Below the pieces are notes generated by a model. That model saw nothing but the letters and a program-made list of their open reading frames with translations, was not told the DNA's origin and ran no database searches. This document shows, piece by piece, positions 1 to 9,518 of a DNA stretch of 11,520 nucleotides; the first letter of the stretch is position 1; the number at the start of each line of letters is the position of its first letter. Location of the stretch: IMG/VR virus record IMGVR_UViG_2671180727_000025; one strand, 5' to 3'. Origin of the DNA: a virus. Taxonomy: Duplodnaviria; Heunggongvirae; Uroviricota; Caudoviricetes. Both the position numbers and the translations under genes were made by a program.

Positions 1-17
1 AGGGGAGCATATGACAC

Positions 18-47
18 ATAAAACAAAGGCGACCGGGGGCGGTCGCC
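18..47 (-). terminator. Rho-independent terminator for the leftward regulator gene
   Basis: Perfect 8-bp GC-rich inverted repeat GGCGACCG (28-35) / CGGTCGCC (40-47) with a 4-nt loop; on the - strand it is followed by TTTGTTTTAT (complement of 18-27). Lies about 90 nt downstream of the stop of the - strand CDS 136..438. Confidence 0.55.
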
Positions 48-135
48 AATGGGAAAACACTAAACATAAGCCCGAACATCATAGCGATTTGCTGGCTGGT
101 GGGCAATGTGATCAGTGTGGTGGTTTGCTGGTGGA

Positions 136-438
136 TTATTCCGCTTCTTTGGCCTTGCGACGCTGGAGTTCTTCGCGTGCAACGGTGACAAGTTGCCCGA
201 TTTCTTCCGCTGCTTTGATGCCGATTTGTTCGACCTTAGCCAGAGCATCCAGTGAAGACACAAGGGGATTTTCTCCGCTGCCTTCTGCCTGGCGGCGTGC
301 TATTTCTCCGCGCATGGCGGTTACGATAAATCCTGCATTGCTCTCGCCGTCCAGCTTAACGGATTCCATGCCTTGCATGACATCGTGAGGGACTCTGAGC
401 GTTGTCATTTGAGATTTTGCGTTTTTGTATACGGACAT
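136..438 (-). CDS. Putative ribbon-helix-helix (CopG/Arc-like) transcriptional regulator, divergently transcribed
   Basis: 100-aa ORF with a GGTGA Shine-Dalgarno 6 nt upstream of the ATG (read on the - strand). The N-terminus (TTLRVPHDVMQGMESV...FIVTAMRGEIARR) fits a beta-strand/helix/helix pattern by eye. It sits directly beside the operator repeat array and opposite the rightward operon. Fold assignment is inference, no search was run. Confidence 0.45.
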   Translation of the reverse strand: MSVYKNAKSQMTTLRVPHDVMQGMESVKLDGESNAGFIVTAMRGEIARRQAEGSGENPLVSSLDALAKVEQIGIKAAEEIGQLVTVAREELQRRKAKEAE

Positions 439-456
439 AATTAATCACCAGTTTAT

Positions 457-560
457 TGTGTGTATATCACTATACAGTAAAGTGAGATATAAAAAAACTT
501 GAAATGTATATCACATCAATGTAACGTGTATCTCACATGATGATTATGTGTATCTCATGT
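457..560. promoter_or_regulatory. Divergent promoter/operator region with periodic TGTAT(A/C)TCAC repeats
   Basis: AT-rich intergenic region between divergent genes. Direct copies at 461-470 (TGTATATCAC), 505-514 (TGTATATCAC), 527-536 (TGTATCTCAC) and 549-558 (TGTATCTCAT), plus an inverted copy at 482-491 (GTGAGATATA). Centres are about 22 bp apart. The first site is part of a 16-bp palindrome, TGTATA-TCAC-TATACA (461-476). Confidence 0.6.
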
Positions 561-635
561 ACGAAAAGACGAAACCCCGCAGTGCTGGAACACATACGGG
601 GCTTCTAACCACAAACACTATAGAGAGGTAAATTT

Positions 636-833
636 ATGGTTGCCGTAAATCATACTCCACGACTAGCACACACACAAACGGCCTTTGTGTGGCGTTTTCT
701 GGCCCTGAGTGCCGGAGAATCTCAAATCATCCACGTAACCGCCTGGACGGAACGCGAAGCGCGTAACCGTTGCCCGTCCGGTTGTGTTGCTGTATTTGCC
801 GCCCGTATTCGTCAGGAGGTGCGCCATGATTAA
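636..833 (+). CDS. Hypothetical small protein, first gene of the rightward operon (possibly Icd-like, tentative)
   Basis: 65-aa ORF with ATG at 636 and a GAGAGG Shine-Dalgarno at 623-628 (7-nt spacing). Its stop overlaps the next gene's start. The motif ...FVWRF...VAVFAARI... is loosely reminiscent of Icd-like small proteins of P4-type elements; this is recollection only, not a search result. Confidence 0.4.
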   Translation: MVAVNHTPRLAHTQTAFVWRFLALSAGESQIIHVTAWTEREARNRCPSGCVAVFAARIRQEVRHD

Positions 834-1038
834 TCTGTCACTTACTGACCTTAACCGCATTCAGTTTCGTGAGAAATTCACAGGGCAGCTACTGGTCAAT
901 GTGGATAAAGGTCGCGTGGTGTGTAATTACCACTTACCAGATGAAGCAATTGTCGCCACAAGGGAATCATTACAGGAAATCACAAAACGTGCCGGAATGA
1001 TTAACACGAATATTCAGGGGATGCTTTATGCACAATAA
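826..1038 (+). CDS. Hypothetical protein
   Basis: 70-aa ORF starting at the internal ATG 826 of track ORF 784..1038, preceded by AGGAGG (814-819, 6-nt spacing). Overlaps the upstream stop by 8 nt, suggesting translational coupling. Confidence 0.5.
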   Translation: MINLSLTDLNRIQFREKFTGQLLVNVDKGRVVCNYHLPDEAIVATRESLQEITKRAGMINTNIQGMLYAQ

Positions 1039-1288
1039 AACCACACCGGACGCAGCCGCCGAAGCCATCAAAACGCTGATGCACGCGCTGATTGATATTT
1101 CTGTTATCGCGGACAGGGCACATAAGCACGCCACCAGCGAAACAGAATATGCCGGGGCTTTCGTTCCTCATTCGCTGGCGGTTATGCAACTTAGTGCTGA
1201 TATGGCGCTGAATGAGGCCAAAGCTATCCTGATTGCTGATTGTGAAAATGGGGGGGGGTTATGCGTGATGATCGTTTTTATTCCCTGA
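1028..1288 (+). CDS. Hypothetical protein
   Basis: 86-aa ORF with ATG at 1028 and an AGGGG Shine-Dalgarno (1016-1020). Its 3' end reads through a G9 homopolymer (1250-1258) and overlaps the next gene by 28 nt. Confidence 0.45.
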   Translation: MHNKTTPDAAAEAIKTLMHALIDISVIADRAHKHATSETEYAGAFVPHSLAVMQLSADMALNEAKAILIADCENGGGLCVMIVFIP

Positions 1289-1494
1289 AACAAGAATTTT
1301 CCGGCGTATCTGATGATGCGGCTGATGCGCTTTCGTCAATGCCAGAACTTATTAGAGCGGCTTTTTTCTTACTTTCCACGAAAGAATATAAATCAACGGG
1401 ACTTGATGTACTGAATATCACCGCCGATTATGCGGAATATGTGGCAGAGGCGCGTTACAGAAGAAAATTTCCTGAGGATGTAAGCCATGCGTGA
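1261..1494 (+). CDS. Hypothetical protein
   Basis: 77-aa ORF with ATG at 1261 immediately after the G-rich tract, which can serve as its Shine-Dalgarno. Its stop overlaps the next start (ATGCGTGA). Confidence 0.45.
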   Translation: MRDDRFYSLKQEFSGVSDDAADALSSMPELIRAAFFLLSTKEYKSTGLDVLNITADYAEYVAEARYRRKFPEDVSHA

Positions 1495-1720
1495 TATTTA
1501 TCTTGAAACAATAGACCGCGCATCACTTGCACTTTCTCACAGTGAAAACATGATGGAAATATTGCGGATGTGCCTTGAATCCTTTGGCGATAATGAACGT
1601 AATGCAAAAAAAACGCGGATTATTACATCATTAATAACGCTTCTTGAGCCTGTAATAAATGAGTTGCAGGAAATAGAGACATTGCACGACAGATATAACG
1701 AACAGCACACCGGAGAATAA
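1487..1720 (+). CDS. Hypothetical protein
   Basis: 77-aa ORF with ATG at 1487 and a GAGGA Shine-Dalgarno (1474-1478). Overlaps the upstream stop. Confidence 0.45.
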   Translation: MRDIYLETIDRASLALSHSENMMEILRMCLESFGDNERNAKKTRIITSLITLLEPVINELQEIETLHDRYNEQHTGE

Positions 1721-1725
1721 AAATA

Positions 1726-2025
1726 ATGAAACTTAAATATTCTGGCTTAACTGCCAGTGGCAACACTCACCCTAAATTTACGCGCGGTGATATTTACCGC
1801 GACCAGTACGGCGGCACGGTAATGATTAAGGGCGTGGCGGGACGGTGCGTAACTTACCGCCGTGAAGGTTACGAATATGATTGCGTGATGCCTGTTTATC
1901 AGTTCCGGCGTGATTTTTCTCTGGTACAGACCGCGCCGCATAACGTGCCCACCAGCAACGCCAGGGCACGGGCAAACCTCCAGAAGCTGAAAACCATGAT
2001 TAACGGATTCAGGGGTAAAAAATGA
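1726..2025 (+). CDS. Hypothetical protein
   Basis: 99-aa ORF with ATG at 1726 and a GGAGAA Shine-Dalgarno (1712-1717). Its stop overlaps the start of the helicase gene (ATGA at 2022-2025). Confidence 0.5.
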   Translation: MKLKYSGLTASGNTHPKFTRGDIYRDQYGGTVMIKGVAGRCVTYRREGYEYDCVMPVYQFRRDFSLVQTAPHNVPTSNARARANLQKLKTMINGFRGKK

Positions 2026-3431
2026 AACTGGCACCGAACGTAAAACTATTACCGAAAGACAAATACACCGATGCGATTATTTTTGCGGGTATTGATGCTC
2101 ATTCATTCGCAGAGCATTACATCATTGCACAGGCCAAAAAAGCAGGCGATCCAGTCCCTCCCGTTTATCTGGGGCGTTATCAGTTAAGCGAACTGGATAA
2201 CCTCCAGATTGTTGATGATGGGCGATACAGGGCGACGGTGATACGCGCCGGAAATATTGAAGAGCCGCAGCTGTTAACCATCGCCACGAAACTGGCGATC
2301 GCCGGAGTCCAGGAGGCGCGGCTACTTTCTGAAAATTTCGAATTGCTGGAGGAATGGAGCGACCAGCTTCCACGGCTTAGGGAGGCATGGGAACGCGGGG
2401 AAAGCCTGGTCATGAAAAAAATCCCCCAGCGAAAAACCACGCTACCGATGAGCGTTGGATCTACCGGATACGACACACAGCTTGATTACGTGGTAAAGGG
2501 GATTATTCCGGCATCGTCGCTTTGCAGCATATACGGGGCGAGCGGTTCCTATAAATCATTCCTTGCCGGATCGTGGGCGTGTCACGTTTCCACGGGCCGC
2601 CAGTGGGGAGGCCGCAGGGTGGCGCATGGCGCTGTTCTCTATGTGGTTGGTGAAGGCGGTATCGGCGTTCCGCGTCGTGTAAAAGCCTGGGAGGTTGTGC
2701 ACGGTGAGCAGGTGAAAAATCTGTATCTGGTAAACCGTCCCATCTTTCCGGCTGTCCCGCTTGATGTTGATGAACTGGTTATTGCTGCCAGTCAGGTGGA
2801 GAGGGAAACGGGTAAACCTGTTCGCATGATTATTCTGGACACGCTGGCGCGCTGCTTTGGCGGCAATGATGAAAATGACTCCCGCGACATGGGGGCGTTT
2901 ATCCGTGGGTGTGACGAACTGAAACGACGCACAGGGGCCACGGTGCTGGTGGTTCACCATTCCGGCAAGGATGAGACGAAAGGCGCGCGCGGTTCCAGTG
3001 CATTTCGTGCTTCGCTGGATGCTGAATACCGGATACGCAGGGAGGACGCAGGAAGCGAAGCGCTGGTTATCTCATGCACCAAAATGAAGGACGCGGAGGA
3101 ACTCAAAGAGGCTGCCTATGATTTGCGGGTAGTGGAGCTTTTTACCGACGCTGACGGGGAGTTAATCACGTCGCTGGTGGTGGTGGATAAGCCGCGCCCT
3201 CCCGTTGAACTGGAGCGCATCGAAGAGGCAGGCAACAAGACGGAAAACCATACCGCGCTATGGGGGTGTATCCGTTCACGCACACAGAACGGCGACAAGT
3301 GCACGATCCCGCTGTTACGTGATGACATGAAAAAACTGGGGTACGAAATAAAGCACTTCCGGCGCTGGCTGGGCAAGCTGGAAAAAGACGGCGTTATCTA
3401 TGTTGACGGCGATGATGTAGGGCCACTGTAA
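2022..3431 (+). CDS. Replication initiator/helicase, RepA-like AAA_25 (RecA-fold) ATPase
   Basis: 469-aa ORF. Walker A-like IYGASGSYKS, Walker B-like VRMIILDTLARCFGG, and a downstream VLVVHHSGKD motif are typical of RepA/DnaB-like AAA_25 helicases of plasmids and PICI/satellite Rep proteins. No primase zinc-finger or TOPRIM motif recognised by eye. An iteron array begins 1 nt after the stop. Confidence 0.8.
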   Translation: MKLAPNVKLLPKDKYTDAIIFAGIDAHSFAEHYIIAQAKKAGDPVPPVYLGRYQLSELDNLQIVDDGRYRATVIRAGNIEEPQLLTIATKLAIAGVQEARLLSENFELLEEWSDQLPRLREAWERGESLVMKKIPQRKTTLPMSVGSTGYDTQLDYVVKGIIPASSLCSIYGASGSYKSFLAGSWACHVSTGRQWGGRRVAHGAVLYVVGEGGIGVPRRVKAWEVVHGEQVKNLYLVNRPIFPAVPLDVDELVIAASQVERETGKPVRMIILDTLARCFGGNDENDSRDMGAFIRGCDELKRRTGATVLVVHHSGKDETKGARGSSAFRASLDAEYRIRREDAGSEALVISCTKMKDAEELKEAAYDLRVVELFTDADGELITSLVVVDKPRPPVELERIEEAGNKTENHTALWGCIRSRTQNGDKCTIPLLRDDMKKLGYEIKHFRRWLGKLEKDGVIYVDGDDVGPL

Positions 3432-3634
3432 AAAGTGGGGGGCAAAAGTGGTGGGCATGGGGAATTTAACAAAATTTAAACACGACCCCCCACTTTTTGA
3501 CCTGTATACATCCCAAAAAGTGGGGAGCAAAAAAAATTCTTATGAAACAGTATGATAAAAATTACAAATCCCACGCCTTTAACGAGATGGGGAATTGTGA
3601 AAAGTGGGGAGTAAAAGTGGGTATAGGTGGGGAG
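3432..3634. repeat. Iteron array, putative origin of replication
   Basis: At least seven copies of (A)AAAGTGGGG(A/G): 3432-3442, 3444-3455, inverted 3486-3498 (CCCCCCACTTTTT), 3515-3527, 3599-3611, 3613-3622, and a degenerate 3623-3634. Two repeat clusters flank an AT-rich core (about 3528-3598). Position immediately downstream of the Rep helicase matches rep-ori organisation in PICI/SaPI-type elements. Confidence 0.6.
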
Positions 3635-3886
3635 ATGACACAAAAACGCAAAGACAGAACACAGCCAAAATATAAAGCGTTAGACATGACAGAGCACGCT
3701 TTAAAGGTGGCAATCAGAACGATAGACCGCCACGCGGGGGAAGGATACGCGAAGGAGCATCCCGAACTGATAAGCGCATTCATGACCACAGCGGCGGCAA
3801 ACTTTGCCACGCTGACAGAACGGGAGATTGCCGAAGCGGAACAGGTAACAACAATCAACGTTAAAACCGGAGAGGTGGAATCATGA
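3635..3886 (+). CDS. Hypothetical protein
   Basis: Internal ATG 3635 of track ORF 3497..3886, 83 aa. Chosen because the upstream in-frame portion merely translates the iteron repeats (KWGVKVGIGGE). A G-rich stretch (3626-3634) lies just upstream. Start is uncertain; alternatives are ATG 3587 and ATG 3542. Confidence 0.4.
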   Translation: MTQKRKDRTQPKYKALDMTEHALKVAIRTIDRHAGEGYAKEHPELISAFMTTAAANFATLTEREIAEAEQVTTINVKTGEVES

Positions 3887-4188
3887 GCGAACCAAAATTT
3901 GGTGAAAAATTTTACAAGCACAACGGACGGATCACGATTCTGCAAATAAGCGCAGCTACACCAGGCTGGTGGGTTGAAACAGACGAAGGATCCTCACCCG
4001 TGGCATCATGGGCGCTTTGTGTGCTTAGTTACCCTGACCGCGATGTGTATCAGGATATTCTGCCTGTGATATCCACAGACAAAGGCATGAAACCCGTAGA
4101 CATCAAAAGCATGGGTTTTCAGTGCGTAATGCTCACTGAAAAAATGATGGAAGAGATGAAAAAGAACAACGCCGGATCGCTTCACTGA
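3883..4188 (+). CDS. Hypothetical protein
   Basis: 101-aa ORF with ATG at 3883 overlapping the upstream stop (ATGA) and a GGAGAGGTGG Shine-Dalgarno at 3869-3878. Confidence 0.5.
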   Translation: MSEPKFGEKFYKHNGRITILQISAATPGWWVETDEGSSPVASWALCVLSYPDRDVYQDILPVISTDKGMKPVDIKSMGFQCVMLTEKMMEEMKKNNAGSLH

Positions 4189-4197
4189 GGTGGCAAT

Positions 4198-4608
4198 ATG
4201 ACAGCACAAATTGCAGCTTACGGGCGGCTGGTGGACGACCCGCTGGTAAAACAGAGCAGCAAGGGCACACCGATGACTCTGGCGCGTATGGCGGTATCGT
4301 TGCCATGCAGCCAGGCACATGACGGACAGGCGACGTTATGGTTATCGGTTATCGCATTTGGCAAACAGGCCGATTTCCTGGCTAAACATCAAAAAGGCGA
4401 TGTTGCCAGCGTATCCGGCACGATGCAGGTAAGCCAGTGGACCGGACAGAACGGGGAAACACGGCAGGGGTATCAGGTTATTGCGGACAGCGTAATCAGT
4501 GCCCGCGCGGCACGTCCTGGCGGGAACAGACGCAAAGCCACAGGCACACAGGGTAATCAGCCACCAGCGGGAGGTGATGACCCTTACGGTGATGATATTC
4601 CGTTCTGA
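4198..4608 (+). CDS. ssb: Single-stranded DNA-binding protein (short SSB with acidic C-terminal tip)
   Basis: 136-aa ORF. OB-fold-like N-terminal region, a Gly/Pro/Gln-rich linker, and a C-terminus DDPYGDDIPF that matches the conserved acidic SSB tail (DDDIPF). GAGGTGG Shine-Dalgarno at 4187-4193. Confidence 0.8.
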   Translation: MTAQIAAYGRLVDDPLVKQSSKGTPMTLARMAVSLPCSQAHDGQATLWLSVIAFGKQADFLAKHQKGDVASVSGTMQVSQWTGQNGETRQGYQVIADSVISARAARPGGNRRKATGTQGNQPPAGGDDPYGDDIPF

Positions 4609-4618
4609 GGGGGTGACG

Positions 4619-4891
4619 ATGGCACATGACCGCATAGCGGAGGAACTCGAGGCAAAAGGCTTTTACCGGAGGGCGGCGGCGCGATGGGGTGAAGTCATGC
4701 AACTGGTGGAGACAGACAAGGAACGGCATCAGGTTACGATGCGACGGCTGGAATGTTCCAGGAAGGCACAGAGGCCACCGGAGCCGCCGGATAACTTCGG
4801 AGACCTGAGAAAGGCAGTCGATCGCACTTATGCTGAAATGGGTATGGATGGTGTAAGCGATGAAATATGGCGTAATTACACAGACAGCTAA
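4619..4891 (+). CDS. PerC-family transcriptional regulator (tentative)
   Basis: 90-aa ORF from the internal ATG 4619 of track ORF 4499..4891, with a GAGGGGG Shine-Dalgarno (4607-4613). The N-terminal motif AEELEAKGFYRRAAARWGEVM resembles the conserved PerC/Pch N-terminus as I recall it. Followed by a strong terminator. Confidence 0.5.
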   Translation: MAHDRIAEELEAKGFYRRAAARWGEVMQLVETDKERHQVTMRRLECSRKAQRPPEPPDNFGDLRKAVDRTYAEMGMDGVSDEIWRNYTDS

Positions 4892-4896
4892 TCAAC

Positions 4897-4929
4897 AGCC
4901 GGAGCAATCCGGCTTTTTGTTATTTTTTG
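4897..4929 (+). terminator. Rho-independent terminator
   Basis: AGCCGGA (4897-4903), GCAA loop, TCCGGCT (4908-4914), followed by TTTTTGTTATTTTTTG. Sits 6 nt after the PerC-like stop. Confidence 0.8.
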
Positions 4930-5178
4930 TAAATTATTTGTTCGTGGTTGTTCCACGTTGTTCACTGAGCGGATCGGCATATTTTACCCGAACTGAATCA
5001 TGATTATTCTCGCCCGTGGTGCCAGGACGCTGGGGCCACTTTCCCGCCTGTTAATGTGCTCGCCAATATTCATTACCAGGCGGGAAAACGATCGGTGCGA
5101 TTACTGATTTCCTTATGAAAAACGGTTGAGTGTTTGCCGCGTCCTGGAGTTCCTTACTTAACCCCAGGACTTTTTTTT
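4930..5178 (+). promoter_or_regulatory. Leader/control region of the head-morphogenesis operon
   Basis: About 250 bp of non-coding DNA between a strong terminator and the capsid gene. Contains tandem GTTGTTC(C)AC repeats (4947-4965), a candidate sigma70-like promoter (TTGTTC 4958-4963, 16-nt spacer, TATTTT 4980-4985), a perfect 9-bp inverted repeat TCCCGCCTG (5042-5050) / CAGGCGGGA (5077-5085), and a hairpin GTCCTGG (5141-5147) / CCAGGAC (5164-5170) followed by T8 (5171-5178) abutting the capsid ATG. Confidence 0.4.
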
Positions 5179-6336
5179 ATGCAGAGAATAATCGAATTAC
5201 GCCAGCAGAAAACCGCCATTAAAAATCAGATGCGCGACATGCTGGAGAACGCGGAAAAAGAAAACCGCAGTCTTAACGATGCTGAGGGCGCAAAATTTGA
5301 CGAATTACGCGCTAAAGCTGAATCCCTCGATAAAGACATTTCCCGCCTTGAAGCCATTGCAGACGAAGAGCGCAGCAAGCCAGGTAAAAGCAGCCAGACC
5401 ACTGACCCCGCAGAACTACGCAGCTACATTCTGACAGGTGAAACCCGCGCATTAAGTACAGGCGTTCCCGCTGATGGTGGTTATACCGTTATCCCCGAAC
5501 TGAACACCGAAATCATGCGAATGCTGGCGGATGAATCCACCATGCGCCGCATCTGTACCGTGAAAAAAATCAGCAGCAACGAGTTTAAGCAGCTTGTTTC
5601 CGCTGGCGGTGCGACCGTTAACCACGGTGAAGAGGGTAAGGCACGCGAACAGACCAGCACCCCGCAGATTAACGAGGTGAGCATTAAGCTGTATCCGGTC
5701 TATGCGTACCCGCGCACCACACAGGAAATCGTGGATTTTTCCGATGTGGACATCCTTTCATGGCTGACGGGTGAGATTGGCGACACCTTCACGGAAACCG
5801 AAGAAAGCGATCTGGTTGTGGGCGACGGTGACAAAAAAGCAAAAGGTTTTTTATCCGTACCCCGTGCAGAGAAGAACGACAAAGAGCGTGATTTTGGTAC
5901 GTTGCAGGTAATTAAACCTTCCGAATCTCTGGCGTGGACATCTGCGGACCCGCTGATCGACCTGAAATTTGCATTACGTAAAAAATACCGCAAAAACGCG
6001 GTCTGGGTGGTTAACTCCACGACGGCGGCAAAACTCCAGAAGGTGAAGAACGCGAACGGTGATTACATCTGGCGTGACCGTTTACAGGCGGGTGATCCTG
6101 ATACGTTGCTGGGCCTTCCGGTCGAATATCTGGAGTTTATGCCTGATAACGTTATTGCCCTGGGTGACTTCAAACGCGGTTACTACATTGTTGATCACGA
6201 AACAGGTGTTCGCACCAGACCGGACAACCTCACAGAGCCGGGCTTCATCAAAATTTTCACGCAGAAATATTTAGGCGGTGGCGTGGTGGATTCGAACGCG
6301 ATCAAGATTCTGGAACTGCCACAGGACGACGATTAA
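5179..6336 (+). CDS. Major capsid protein, HK97 family, with N-terminal coiled-coil delta/scaffold domain
   Basis: 385 aa from ATG 5179; the track ORF starts at an upstream in-frame TTG 5134. N-terminal 90 aa are charged and coiled-coil-like (ELRQQKTAIKNQMRDMLENAEKE...). The C-terminal body has HK97-fold-like motifs (VVGDGDKKAKGFLS, YIWRDRLQAGDPDTLLGLPVEYLEFMP). No clear Shine-Dalgarno for either start. Confidence 0.88.
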   Translation: MQRIIELRQQKTAIKNQMRDMLENAEKENRSLNDAEGAKFDELRAKAESLDKDISRLEAIADEERSKPGKSSQTTDPAELRSYILTGETRALSTGVPADGGYTVIPELNTEIMRMLADESTMRRICTVKKISSNEFKQLVSAGGATVNHGEEGKAREQTSTPQINEVSIKLYPVYAYPRTTQEIVDFSDVDILSWLTGEIGDTFTETEESDLVVGDGDKKAKGFLSVPRAEKNDKERDFGTLQVIKPSESLAWTSADPLIDLKFALRKKYRKNAVWVVNSTTAAKLQKVKNANGDYIWRDRLQAGDPDTLLGLPVEYLEFMPDNVIALGDFKRGYYIVDHETGVRTRPDNLTEPGFIKIFTQKYLGGGVVDSNAIKILELPQDDD

Positions 6337-6346
6337 CAGCATACAG

Positions 6347-6375
6347 AAGGGGCTTAAAAGCCCCTTTAGTGTTTT
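6347..6375 (+). terminator. Intra-operon terminator-like hairpin between capsid and protease genes
   Basis: Stem AAGGGGC (6347-6353) / GCCCCTT (6360-6366) with a 6-nt loop, followed by TAGTGTTTT. Located 10 nt after the capsid stop. Confidence 0.6.
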
Positions 6376-6390
6376 ATGGGTGAAAAAATT

Positions 6391-6948
6391 ATGAAGAGTA
6401 TGGAAATCCGGTCATCGGAAATCACCACCAGCGGCAGCAACACGCTTACAGGCTACGTTGTTCGCTGGGATAAGCTTTCAGAACTGTTATGGGGTGAGTT
6501 TTACGAAAAATTCCAGCGGGGGGCGTTTACTGAATGGCTTGCGGCGGGTAATGACGTTCGCGGCCTGTATGAGCATGACCACAGTATGTTACTGGGGCGC
6601 ACCCGTTCCGGCACGCTGAAACTGGAAGAGGATGAAACAGGGTTACGCTTTGAACTGACCCCACCGGATACCAGTACAGGGCGCGACGTTATCGAACTGG
6701 TTAAACGTGGTGATATATCCGGCATGAGCTTTGGCTTTCGCTCCCGTAAGGATGTATGGGATACCACAACAGATCCATGCGTGCGCACCGTGCTGGTGGC
6801 GGAACTGTACGAAATTACCGTTACATCGGTACCGGCTTACCCCGATTCCGGCGTGGAGCTGGCCCGCCGTTCCCTGTATGAGCAGCACCCCGAAAAAATG
6901 CCGCGTGCGGATAATCGCCGCTGGTGGGTGGATTTAGCGGGGGTGTGA
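6391..6948 (+). CDS. Prohead serine protease, HK97 family
   Basis: Track ORF 6376..6948; preferred start is ATG 6391 (MKSMEIRS...), with GGGTGA 7 nt upstream. N-terminal ...GYVVRWDKLSE..., a candidate catalytic His (EHDHSMLLGRT) and Ser (DISGMSFGF) match the HK97 prohead protease pattern. Confidence 0.85.
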   Translation: MKSMEIRSSEITTSGSNTLTGYVVRWDKLSELLWGEFYEKFQRGAFTEWLAAGNDVRGLYEHDHSMLLGRTRSGTLKLEEDETGLRFELTPPDTSTGRDVIELVKRGDISGMSFGFRSRKDVWDTTTDPCVRTVLVAELYEITVTSVPAYPDSGVELARRSLYEQHPEKMPRADNRRWWVDLAGV

Positions 6949-6949
6949 T

Positions 6950-8161
6950 ATGTGGCCTTTCAGAAGAAAAAAAGAGCAGCGCAGCATGACGCTTGATGAA
7001 TTTATGGCGCTGGCTGGCACATCGAACACGGGGGCGGGTGAGTACGTATCATCGGGGACAGCGGAATCACTGCCTGCCGTCATGAACGCCGTTACGGTCA
7101 TCTCTGAGGCGGTGGCTACTATGCCATGCTACCTGTACCTGGTACGCAATGAGAAGGGGAAGGAGGCCCGCGAGTGGCTTGATTCTCATCCGGTCGATCA
7201 CATCCTCAACGAGCGCCCGAACGCATGGCAAACCCCCTACCAGTTTAAGCGAATGATGATCCGCCACTGCCTGTTAAACGGTAATGCTTATGCGGTTATT
7301 CAGTGGGGGCGTGATGGTTTTCCGGCGGCTTTACATCCTTACCCGCCGCAGTCGGTGAACGTGGAGCAGACAGGCGAACACAACTGGCGCTATTGCATCA
7401 CTGACGCCTACACCGGAAACACCCACAACTATTTACCGTGGGAAGTACTTCACCTTCGTTACTCCACGGATGACGGCTTTATGGGGCGCTCACCTGTAAC
7501 CATCTGCCGCGAATCGCTGGGGCTTGGGCTGGCCCAACAACGCCACGGCGCGAGCGTGATGCGTGATGGCATGATGGCGGCAGGGGTTATCACGTCAGGC
7601 GAATGGCTGGACGGCGTGAAGGGCAAACAGGCATTAGCCGCACTGGAACGCTACAAAGGGGCCAGAAACGCCGGAAAAACGCCCATCCTTGAAGGGGGGA
7701 TGAGCTATCAGCAGCTGGGCATGAGTAATCAGGATGCTGAATGGCTGGCCTCCCGTCGCTTTACCATTGAAGACATCGCCCGAATGTTCAACGTCTCGCC
7801 GATTTTTTTGCAGGAATACAGCAACAGCACCTACAGCAATTTCAGCGAGGCAAGCCGCGCATTTCTCACCATGACGATGCGCCCGTGGCTGGCGAACTTT
7901 GAGCAGCAGATAAAAAACGCCCTGCTGGTGGCCTCGCCTGTACCTGGTATCCGGTATCAGGTGGAGTTTGACAGCGCGGACCTGTTACGGGCCACACCTG
8001 GCGAACGCTTTGCCACCTATGAGCGCGGCATCAAATCCGGCGTTATGTGCCCGAACGAAGCCCGCGAACGTGAAGGACTGTCACCGCGTGATGGTGGTGA
8101 TGAGTTCAGTCAGGCATGGAAACAGGAAGTAAAAATCAGCGAGGGAGAAAAACCGGAATGA
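6950..8161 (+). CDS. Portal protein, HK97 family
   Basis: 403-aa ORF with ATG at 6950, 1 nt after the protease stop, and a GGGGGTG Shine-Dalgarno. Size and the conserved region around HPVDHILNERPNAWQTPYQF...LLNGNAYAV are consistent with HK97-type portals. Placement next to protease and capsid supports the call. Confidence 0.85.
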   Translation: MWPFRRKKEQRSMTLDEFMALAGTSNTGAGEYVSSGTAESLPAVMNAVTVISEAVATMPCYLYLVRNEKGKEAREWLDSHPVDHILNERPNAWQTPYQFKRMMIRHCLLNGNAYAVIQWGRDGFPAALHPYPPQSVNVEQTGEHNWRYCITDAYTGNTHNYLPWEVLHLRYSTDDGFMGRSPVTICRESLGLGLAQQRHGASVMRDGMMAAGVITSGEWLDGVKGKQALAALERYKGARNAGKTPILEGGMSYQQLGMSNQDAEWLASRRFTIEDIARMFNVSPIFLQEYSNSTYSNFSEASRAFLTMTMRPWLANFEQQIKNALLVASPVPGIRYQVEFDSADLLRATPGERFATYERGIKSGVMCPNEAREREGLSPRDGGDEFSQAWKQEVKISEGEKPE

Positions 8162-9229: not shown

Positions 9230-9395
9230 TCGGGAACAAAACCGCCTTATCCGTGGACTTATAAGGCAGCGTGACGCATGGAAGACACAGGAAACAGGGC
9301 ATAAAGATAAAGCGTCAGGACGCGCAGAACGCATCACAGCGAAGCGATTAACCGACCGTGACCGCGAGGTTATGGAATGTTTCCGCAATCGCTGA
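9213..9395 (+). CDS. Possible small basic protein (hypothetical, weakly supported)
   Basis: 60-aa ORF (MTLMNDREQNRLIRGLIRQRDAWK...) from ATG 9213, overlapping the HNH 3' end in another frame. No convincing Shine-Dalgarno. The region could instead be non-coding packaging-site DNA. Confidence 0.25.
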   Translation: MTLMNDREQNRLIRGLIRQRDAWKTQETGHKDKASGRAERITAKRLTDRDREVMECFRNR

Positions 9396-9518
9396 TGAGG
9401 CTGTATGACGGGGTGGGGGGCGTTTTCAGGACAAACCCGACCCCGCCGGGCACCGAACGCCTCCTCAAATTTTTATGCACGGGAATTTTTTGAAAAATAA
9501 TCTGGCGAAAAAATAAGC
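9396..9518. other. Candidate packaging (cos) region upstream of the small terminase gene
   Basis: Non-coding stretch between the HNH and small terminase genes containing a G-rich tract (GGGGTGGGGGG, 9410-9420) and an imperfect GC-rich inverted repeat (9407-9418 versus 9436-9447). In HK97-like cos phages the cos site lies between the HNH gene and terS. Assignment is positional inference only. Confidence 0.2.

Follow-up and report, generated by a model that had tools for sequence, protein, structure and literature searches.

The 288-nt gap between the end of perC and the capsid gene of a capsid-forming PICI (cf-PICI) was read, with moderate confidence, as the control region and 5' leader of the capsid operon, with the leader being of a bistable attenuator type. 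The leader is a well-conserved and newly described cis-regulatory RNA with competing helices, to which the lineage analysed here adds an intrinsic-terminator tail, and it probably gates capsid production. Its anatomy, the conservation and covariation of its first two hairpins (H1 and H2), the co-varying complementarity between H1 and a downstream segment (region 3) and its association with the capsid gene were established by comparison of related islands. In the cf-PICI and PICI literature covering EcCIEDL933, EcCICFT073, AlpA and EHEC small RNAs, neither a description of the leader nor a mapping of its start site or terminator was found.

Judged by its genes, the window (the whole stretch of 11,520 nt that was analysed) is itself a cf-PICI: it carries its own head and terminase set without tail or lysis genes, the criterion for such elements, and over positions 4600-5400 it is 97.7% identical to EcCIEDL933 (EDL933), the prototype cf-PICI. 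A replication module (DUF4222, AAA_25 helicase and SSB, then a PerC-family gene at 4619-4891) is followed by the gap under study and by an HK97-type packaging module identified by Pfam matches (capsid, protease, portal, head completion, connector, HNH, TerS and TerL). Neither int nor alpA was found within the window, and the left end of the island falls outside it. The HK97-type major capsid gene (5179-6336, + strand; Pfam PF05065, E = 1.6e-61) is the first gene of the packaging operon, and its conserved N-terminus starts at the same ATG (5179) in all relatives. A cos site in the leader was ruled out, as cos was placed elsewhere by the packaged genome of a relative. The linear record of this relative, vB_KppS-Ant (L238; LR881103.1, 16.5 kb; named 'Escherichia phage' in GenBank and a cf-PICI), begins 22 nt 5' of terS, and cos therefore lies between HNH and terS; the window counterpart is the 289-nt gap 9230-9518.

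Loci encoding relatives of the capsid protein were drawn from E. coli genomes, GTDB species representatives, IMG/VR and metagenomes and gave 158 distinct 300-nt upstream regions, 139 of which held a recognisable leader; in about 150 related islands a leader with the same architecture immediately precedes the same capsid gene. Common to all recognisable leaders were H1, an abutting long H2, a linker and a last hairpin (H4) at the ATG. In the T-run type, which comprises the E. coli/Shigella lineage of the window plus the divergent relative L061, H4 is followed by T7-8. The second type is much larger, and its H4 (UGGUUUC...GAAACCA) ends 4-5 nt before the ATG without a T-run. A third type (L198 and L199, with a close variant in L100 and L189) has a CTGCATG...CATGCAGGAG hairpin immediately ahead of the start codon; in L198, L199 and L100 the 3' arm of this hairpin holds a good Shine-Dalgarno sequence, and a TTG start is used there. 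AT-rich relatives (Gilliamella and others) had no recognisable H1 or H4. When IMG/VR was scanned with the H1 21-mer, 120 independent loci were obtained; the capsid N-terminus followed 118-144 nt downstream in 118 of them, and the remaining two were cut by the end of the locus. The genes on the other side of the leader vary (PerC, a phrog_1957 ORF, other small ORFs or a divergent gene), and by its genomic position the leader is taken to belong to the capsid gene, not to its upstream neighbour. A BLAST search of 50,697 phage records returned nothing for the window-type leader and three matches for a second-type leader, the best being vB_KppS-Ant, itself a cf-PICI.

A PerC homologue was found upstream of every T-run-type leader with enough flank, including L061, and near 2 of 105 second-type leaders. 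The suggestion in the original prediction that a PerC-like signal gates the capsid gene was not borne out, as it comes down to co-occurrence in one lineage. PerC was rejected as a general regulator: it is absent from the flanks of the other 103 second-type leaders, and a TGTTC x3 array is present in >20 islands without PerC within 1.2 kb. From this distribution PerC and the leader type look linked by lineage; a role of PerC confined to this lineage may be conceivable. An ORF of 74-82 aa (phrog_1957), some versions of which have an arginine-rich C-terminus, lies directly upstream of the leader in EDL933 and in 86 of the 158 distinct leaders. A 354-bp indel (window 4892-4925 against L001 1793-2141) has left the window without this ORF, and the ORF product was rejected as a required partner on the ground of this absence.

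Directly after perC lies an intrinsic terminator (4897-4918, + strand; stem AGCCGGA/TCCGGCT, loop GCAA, T5; -12.6 kcal/mol), and a terminator upstream of the predicted promoter was present in every related island. It would halt transcription from the upstream genes and so insulate the capsid operon. In L073 the gene upstream of the leader is divergent, and the promoter must therefore be in the leader region; taken together with the terminator found upstream in every lineage, this makes the capsid operon probably a separate transcription unit. A conserved box, TTTGTAAATTAT (4926-4937, + strand), lies upstream of H1 at a distance that stays within 86-88 nt among relatives and is probably a protein-binding site; it occurs once per island, no second copy having been found elsewhere in the island. 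It is followed by three TTGTTC direct repeats (4938-4963, + strand, read from the sequence; starts at 4938, 4948 and 4958, 10-bp period) centred about -75, -65 and -55 relative to the predicted start. Phased repeats of varying sequence occupy the same position in relatives, and the repeats are candidate activator sites. A replication origin or iterons were considered unlikely, since box and repeats accompany the capsid module in islands with differing replication genes. In many islands (type B loci, e.g. L004 2340-2375 and L238 12095-12125) an intrinsic terminator is located between the box and the predicted -35, its stem co-varies and its T-run forms part of the promoter; in the window, unlike these loci, the corresponding terminator precedes the box.

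A weak sigma-70-type promoter was predicted at 4983-5010 (+ strand; -35 TTTACC at 4983-4988, 16-nt spacer, -10 TATTCT at 5005-5010), which would place the transcription start at about 5016, so that the RNA would begin at H1. When 106 distinct upstream regions were lined up on the first base of H1, the conserved positions read TTTAC/TTTTC at -34..-29 and TATAT[CG]TT at -13..-6. The predicted promoter has 8/12 consensus matches and was hence not listed by a simple promoter scan; a match of this quality would be expected of an activator-dependent promoter. With the phased upstream repeats, a weak and probably activator-dependent promoter is a plausible prediction, in line with the activator-dependent promoter proposed originally.

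Folding of 4995-5200 gave z = -7.6 against shuffles, and the original proposal that the head (packaging) operon has a structured leader here was supported. H1, the 5'-terminal hairpin (5016-5039, + strand; GUGGU-G-CCAG-[GACG]-CUGG-G-GCCAC; -15.6 kcal/mol), has a loop, GACG, that is constant in all but a few relatives (GGCG in L119 and L147, GATG in L091), and compensatory changes were seen in 5 of its 9 pairs across lineages. H2, a long hairpin (5040-5087, + strand; -22.6 kcal/mol, z = -5.6), corresponds to the perfect 9-bp inverted repeat with a 26-nt spacer that had been reported; repeat and spacer are real, and the perfect part measures 11 bp (TTTCCCGCCTG at 5040-5050 and CAGGCGGGAAA at 5077-5087) with the reported 9-mer inside it. 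The repeat extends to 17-nt arms (5040-5056/5071-5087) with one mismatch and a 14-nt loop. When 4930-5178 was shuffled 2000 times with dinucleotides preserved, a perfect repeat of 11 bp or more (loop up to 40 nt) turned up in one shuffle and one of 9 bp or more in 45. H3 (5090-5109, + strand) is a weak hairpin with 3 G.U pairs; it was assigned with low confidence and is not conserved in L061.

Covariation was scored in MAFFT alignments made from sequence alone, using a set of 18 sequences and a set that included the window. In the latter, 95% of cells were paired, vs 35-52% when partners were slid by 1-3 columns, and none of 500 shuffles was as good as the real pairing. For H2, 92% of cells were paired, 10 of 11 pairs had changed on both sides, and at least 12 unrelated stem sequences were found at the same position. 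Wobbles in 37 distinct H2 stems, with both types allowed, were 27 G.U vs 9 A.C, an excess which points to pairing in + strand RNA. Because compensatory changes affect 10 of the 11 pairs, H2 behaves as an RNA helix and not as an operator, and by this covariation the inverted repeat is helix H2 of the leader RNA. Its earlier interpretation as a protein operator or part of a promoter was not upheld: it lies downstream of the predicted start, and the arm sequence differs between islands with the pairing kept. Nor was a half-site conserved among the elements, as would be expected of a palindromic operator.

A covariance model (R1) was built from 18 leaders of the second (no-T-run) type. With default filters R1 recovered all second-type leaders searched, the E423-like sub-type at lower scores, and recovered no T-run-type leader and no AT-rich variant; with filters off it matched H1 and H2 of the window at 22.9 bits (E = 2.8e-5) and missed H4. 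In this alignment the capsid ATG of R1 was placed on the ATG (5115) of a mini-ORF inside the leader (5115-5129, ATG AAA AAC GGT TGA), which is without a Shine-Dalgarno sequence and absent in L061. A leader peptide was rejected, as this mini-ORF is neither preceded by a Shine-Dalgarno sequence nor conserved. Rfam 15, searched with permissive filters, gave no match in 4892-5178 at E <= 1. The only match in the window resembles SymR antitoxin RNA (568-641, - strand; 32 bits vs a gathering score of 61, E = 0.0064) and overlaps the 5' end of a 65-aa ORF (636-833) that matches the phage 'transcriptional repressor' family phrog_1743.

H4 and its U8 tract (5141-5178, + strand) resemble an intrinsic terminator. 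The 7-bp stem 5141-5147/5164-5170 had been described correctly and extends to 11-nt arms (5141-5151/5160-5170), consisting of 7 bp (5 G-C), one A.C mismatch, 3 bp and an 8-nt loop; the T8 (5171-5178) also lies where it had been seen, beginning directly after the last base of the stem and ending at the capsid ATG (5179). Folding gave H4 a free energy of -14.1 kcal/mol (z = -4.4), the other two terminators of the window having -12.6 and -14.8 kcal/mol. H4 was missed by a simple terminator scan owing to its interrupted stem. None of 2000 shuffles produced a 7-bp stem with seven or more T behind it. By prediction, hairpin and T8 have all the sequence features of an intrinsic terminator, in agreement with the terminator-like structure claimed at the outset. 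The T-run is T7 or T8 in all leaders of the window's lineage, and H4 with T7-8 was kept in every one of them including L061, the upper stem showing wobble or compensatory changes; H4 of the main lineage is conserved in sequence with little covariation, and it is weakened in three singleton variants (L021, L031 and L053). Because the T-run is confined to one lineage, termination cannot, on this comparison of leaders, be the function that the family conserves; T8 could have been added in this lineage, or could be a U-rich element for translation.

That the capsid gene has no Shine-Dalgarno sequence, as was stated originally, is nearly right: the only match is a weak AGGA (5166-5169) located 9 nt before the ATG in the 3' arm of H4, with an anti-Shine-Dalgarno pairing of -4.0 kcal/mol vs -9.9 for portal and -12.5 for perC. 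Further downstream, a strong hairpin (GAAGGGGCTTAAAAGCCCCTTT; 6346-6375, -14.8 kcal/mol) has a T-rich tail that runs into the protease ATG (6376), which is likewise without a Shine-Dalgarno sequence, and the operon therefore has two 'terminators' abutting start codons. In the HK97 record, putative terminators are annotated after several head genes. In a complete island of the second leader type, no internal terminators were found.

The 5' arm of H4 has a second possible partner. Region 3 (GCGUCCUGG; 5139-5147, + strand) can pair with 5164-5170 (OFF) or with the strand CCAGGACGC (5022-5030, + strand), which comprises the 5' strand and loop of H1 and would act as antiterminator (ON). The repeat finder showed CCAGGACGC to be perfectly complementary over 9 bp to GCGTCCTGG (5139-5147), and CCAGGAC occurs twice (5022-5028 and 5164-5170), i.e. 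the first 7 bases of the antiterminator equal the 3' arm of H4. One strand with two possible partners is the logic of an attenuator, and with this mutually exclusive pairing the term 'attenuator', used in the original prediction, describes the leader fairly. The H1/region-3 pairing was kept in three lineage states (GGACGC/GCGUCC, AGACGUGA/UCACGUCU and GACGGGA/UCCCGUC), and the same position was C-G, U-A or G-C across three lineages, plus a G.U variant. In the 18-sequence alignment 96.5% of cells of this helix paired, and one pair had changed on both sides. This covariation rests on three or four lineage states and hence few independent events, and its value as independent evidence is limited because the same H1 positions co-vary within H1.

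Nascent folding was modelled for transcripts from the predicted start at 5016 with successive 3' ends. P(ON) was 0.86-0.97 with the 3' end at 5148-5160, 0.01 at 5164 and 0.00 from 5168, and leaders of other lineages showed the same ON-then-OFF behaviour. At equilibrium the full-length leader was predicted to be entirely OFF, which was 4-11 kcal/mol below ON in most sequences tested; L061, where the ON fold is the minimum-energy structure and ON and OFF are equal in energy, widens the overall difference to 0-11 kcal/mol. With OFF at equilibrium, expression requires kinetic trapping or a factor to be invoked. Two perfect 10-nt complementarities are nested around these elements, one joining the end of perC with capsid codons 6-9 (4868-4877/5195-5204) and one joining the predicted -10 region with capsid codons 2-5 (5002-5011/5184-5193). 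These outer stems were not adopted, as they reach outside the predicted transcript and the latter has an uncompensated change in EDL933; they would be relevant in read-through transcripts only.

In the mechanism we propose, a weak promoter, probably helped by a protein on the box and the TTGTTC repeats, would start RNA at about 5016, and the leader RNA would fold into H1, H2, a weak H3 and H4. In the ON state region 3 would pair with the 5' strand and loop of H1, leaving the U-tract free of a hairpin and the weak ribosome-binding site and start codon open. In the OFF state region 3 and 5164-5170 would form the H4 terminator hairpin before U8 and bury AGGA. Nascent RNA would favour the ON helix until the 3' arm of H4 is made, and OFF strongly thereafter. 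Since ON is favoured in nascent RNA only, kinetics, or a factor stabilizing H1 or the ON helix, should decide the outcome, and in this folding model the leader behaves like a kinetically controlled expression platform. Promoter and start site, actual termination at U8 and regulation of the switch are the steps that we infer. Looking for a sensor, we found no Rfam aptamer, no conserved leader peptide and no universally linked upstream protein gene.

Several other readings were weighed against this attenuator-type leader. It is somewhat unlikely that the element acts on translation or mRNA stability only, with H1 as a protective 5' hairpin, H4 limiting access of ribosomes to a start nearly devoid of a Shine-Dalgarno sequence, the alternative pairing opening the initiation region and T8 serving as a U-rich landing site for the ribosome (S1). 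H4 of most relatives, which stops 4-5 nt short of the ATG and lacks a T-run, is in keeping with such a role, as are the capsid starts of the family, generally without a Shine-Dalgarno sequence (-3 to -4 kcal/mol), the Shine-Dalgarno-like bases in the 3' arm of the last hairpin in the window's lineage and in the third type (CTGCATG..CATGCAGGAG), and the ON/OFF behaviour, which is conserved without a terminator. Against it, a GC-rich stem of 7+3 bp followed by 7-8 U is the canonical signature of a terminator and was kept in both sub-lineages; the reading is a partial rival in any case, as control of translation and termination are not mutually exclusive. Unlikely, too, is a plain leader terminator (H4/U8) read through by means of a Q-like or AlpA-like antiterminator of the island or its helper. 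The promoter would then be constitutive or early, a terminator-resistant polymerase would pass both H4 and 6346-6375, and the H1/region-3 complementarity would be secondary. The lambdoid PR'-tR' region has the same layout with a short terminated RNA (PMC7547250), P. aeruginosa AlpA, which is loaded at a site within a promoter, overcomes a terminator before the first ORF (PMC7969949), EcCIEDL933 induction requires AlpA (bioRxiv 10.1101/2022.09.08.507074), and the several putative terminators annotated among HK97 head genes fit as well; the second strong terminator-like hairpin at the protease ATG makes processive antitermination a live rival in the window's lineage. This reading leaves the conservation of H1, H2 and the H1/region-3 pairing unexplained in lineages that lack the terminator, and the complete second-type island has no internal terminators. 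Moreover, no Q or AlpA (PF05930) was present among the window ORFs, the left end of the island being outside the window, the P. aeruginosa AlpA motif GGGACG-N5-GGTA is absent from 4983-5010 as read from the sequence, and kinship of this AlpA with the AlpA of E. coli PICIs is an assumption.

A speculative extension, to which we attach a low probability, is that H1 and H2 form a pocket that binds a signal from the helper phage or the host, or a put-like antitermination RNA, and that the leader represents an undescribed family of sensor RNAs devoted to satellite capsid operons. As a pocket, they would let a protein or small molecule pick ON or OFF, so that capsids would be made only when a helper can supply tails; as a put-like RNA, they would make polymerase resistant to both terminators of the operon. 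It is improbable that the leader is mainly a trans-acting small RNA of ~163 nt that ends in a terminator and U-tail of the Hfq type, is produced without induction and regulates host or helper genes in the manner of StxS. The layout does match PR'-tR'/StxS (PMC7547250), and the stable 5' hairpin, the terminator with U8 and the conserved exposed loop would suit such an RNA; relatives without the U-tract could not make it, yet they keep H1 and H2, and no Rfam match was found. Very improbable is a DNA operator at 5040-5087 that binds a dimeric regulator (PerC-like or other) and represses or activates the capsid promoter. A perfect 11-bp repeat near a promoter with PerC encoded just upstream in the window's lineage would be compatible with it, against which stand arm sequences that are unrelated between islands with complementarity kept over at least 10 contiguous positions, the strand bias of the wobbles, the location of the repeat downstream of the predicted start site and the lack of PerC in the flanks of nearly all second-type leaders (103/105).

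The bistable attenuator-type leader, the reading we prefer, bears on a step of the cf-PICI life cycle that is not described in the cf-PICI and PICI literature searched, namely how head production is timed or limited. These elements build the heads themselves and depend on helper phages for nothing but tails. A conserved, co-varying leader at the entry of the packaging operon offers a mutable handle on this step (H1 loop, region 3 and U-tract), and it would add a new family to the few cis-regulatory RNAs known from phage satellites. Should the terminated leader build up as a small RNA in EHEC or Shigella, it could act on host genes like StxS.

Among known systems, the P. aeruginosa PalpB-tB operon has an intrinsic terminator between its promoter and first ORF, as is predicted for the window, and is switched on by the small DNA-binding factor AlpA (PMC7969949, PMC9371919); the window differs in having neither the motif GGGACG-N5-GGTA at 4983-5010 nor an AlpA gene. 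The lambdoid PR'-tR' region (6S RNA/StxS, Q) is similar in that a promoter and terminated leader precede a late or structural operon (PMC7547250), and the head module of the window is HK97-like. The lambdoid leader, however, precedes lysis genes, whereas that of the window lies directly before the capsid gene, and neither a Q gene nor a Q-binding element was identified in the window. Unlike tR', the window leader has conserved co-varying RNA helices, which tR' leaders are not known to need. In operators that sequester the Shine-Dalgarno sequence (phage Mu mom/Com), as in the window, a hairpin at the start codon holds the only Shine-Dalgarno-like bases and an alternative fold frees them; the window hairpin differs in also carrying a U8 tail, and we know of no cognate RNA-binding protein for it. 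The put RNAs of HK022 are cis-acting antitermination RNAs of two adjacent stem-loops, and the leader resembles this architecture in having two abutting 5' stem-loops (H1 and H2) in a terminator-containing transcript; the head genes of the element also resemble those of HK97 and HK022. R1 with filters off gave nothing significant in HK022 20000-40751 and HK97 1-8000 (best E = 0.38), and the HK022 cro-cII interval did not fold unusually well. Compared with attenuators (riboswitch expression platforms and the trp, pyr and bgl leaders), the leader is without a leader peptide, a known aptamer or protein-binding motif or an Rfam family, and in most relatives its 'terminator' has no U-tract. It is like them in that one segment (5139-5147) joins either an upstream partner or a downstream partner next to a U-tract, and in that its antiterminator prevails in nascent RNA only. 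Its upstream partner, unlike theirs, consists of the loop and one strand of the 5'-terminal hairpin, and the H1 loop could therefore act as a toehold.
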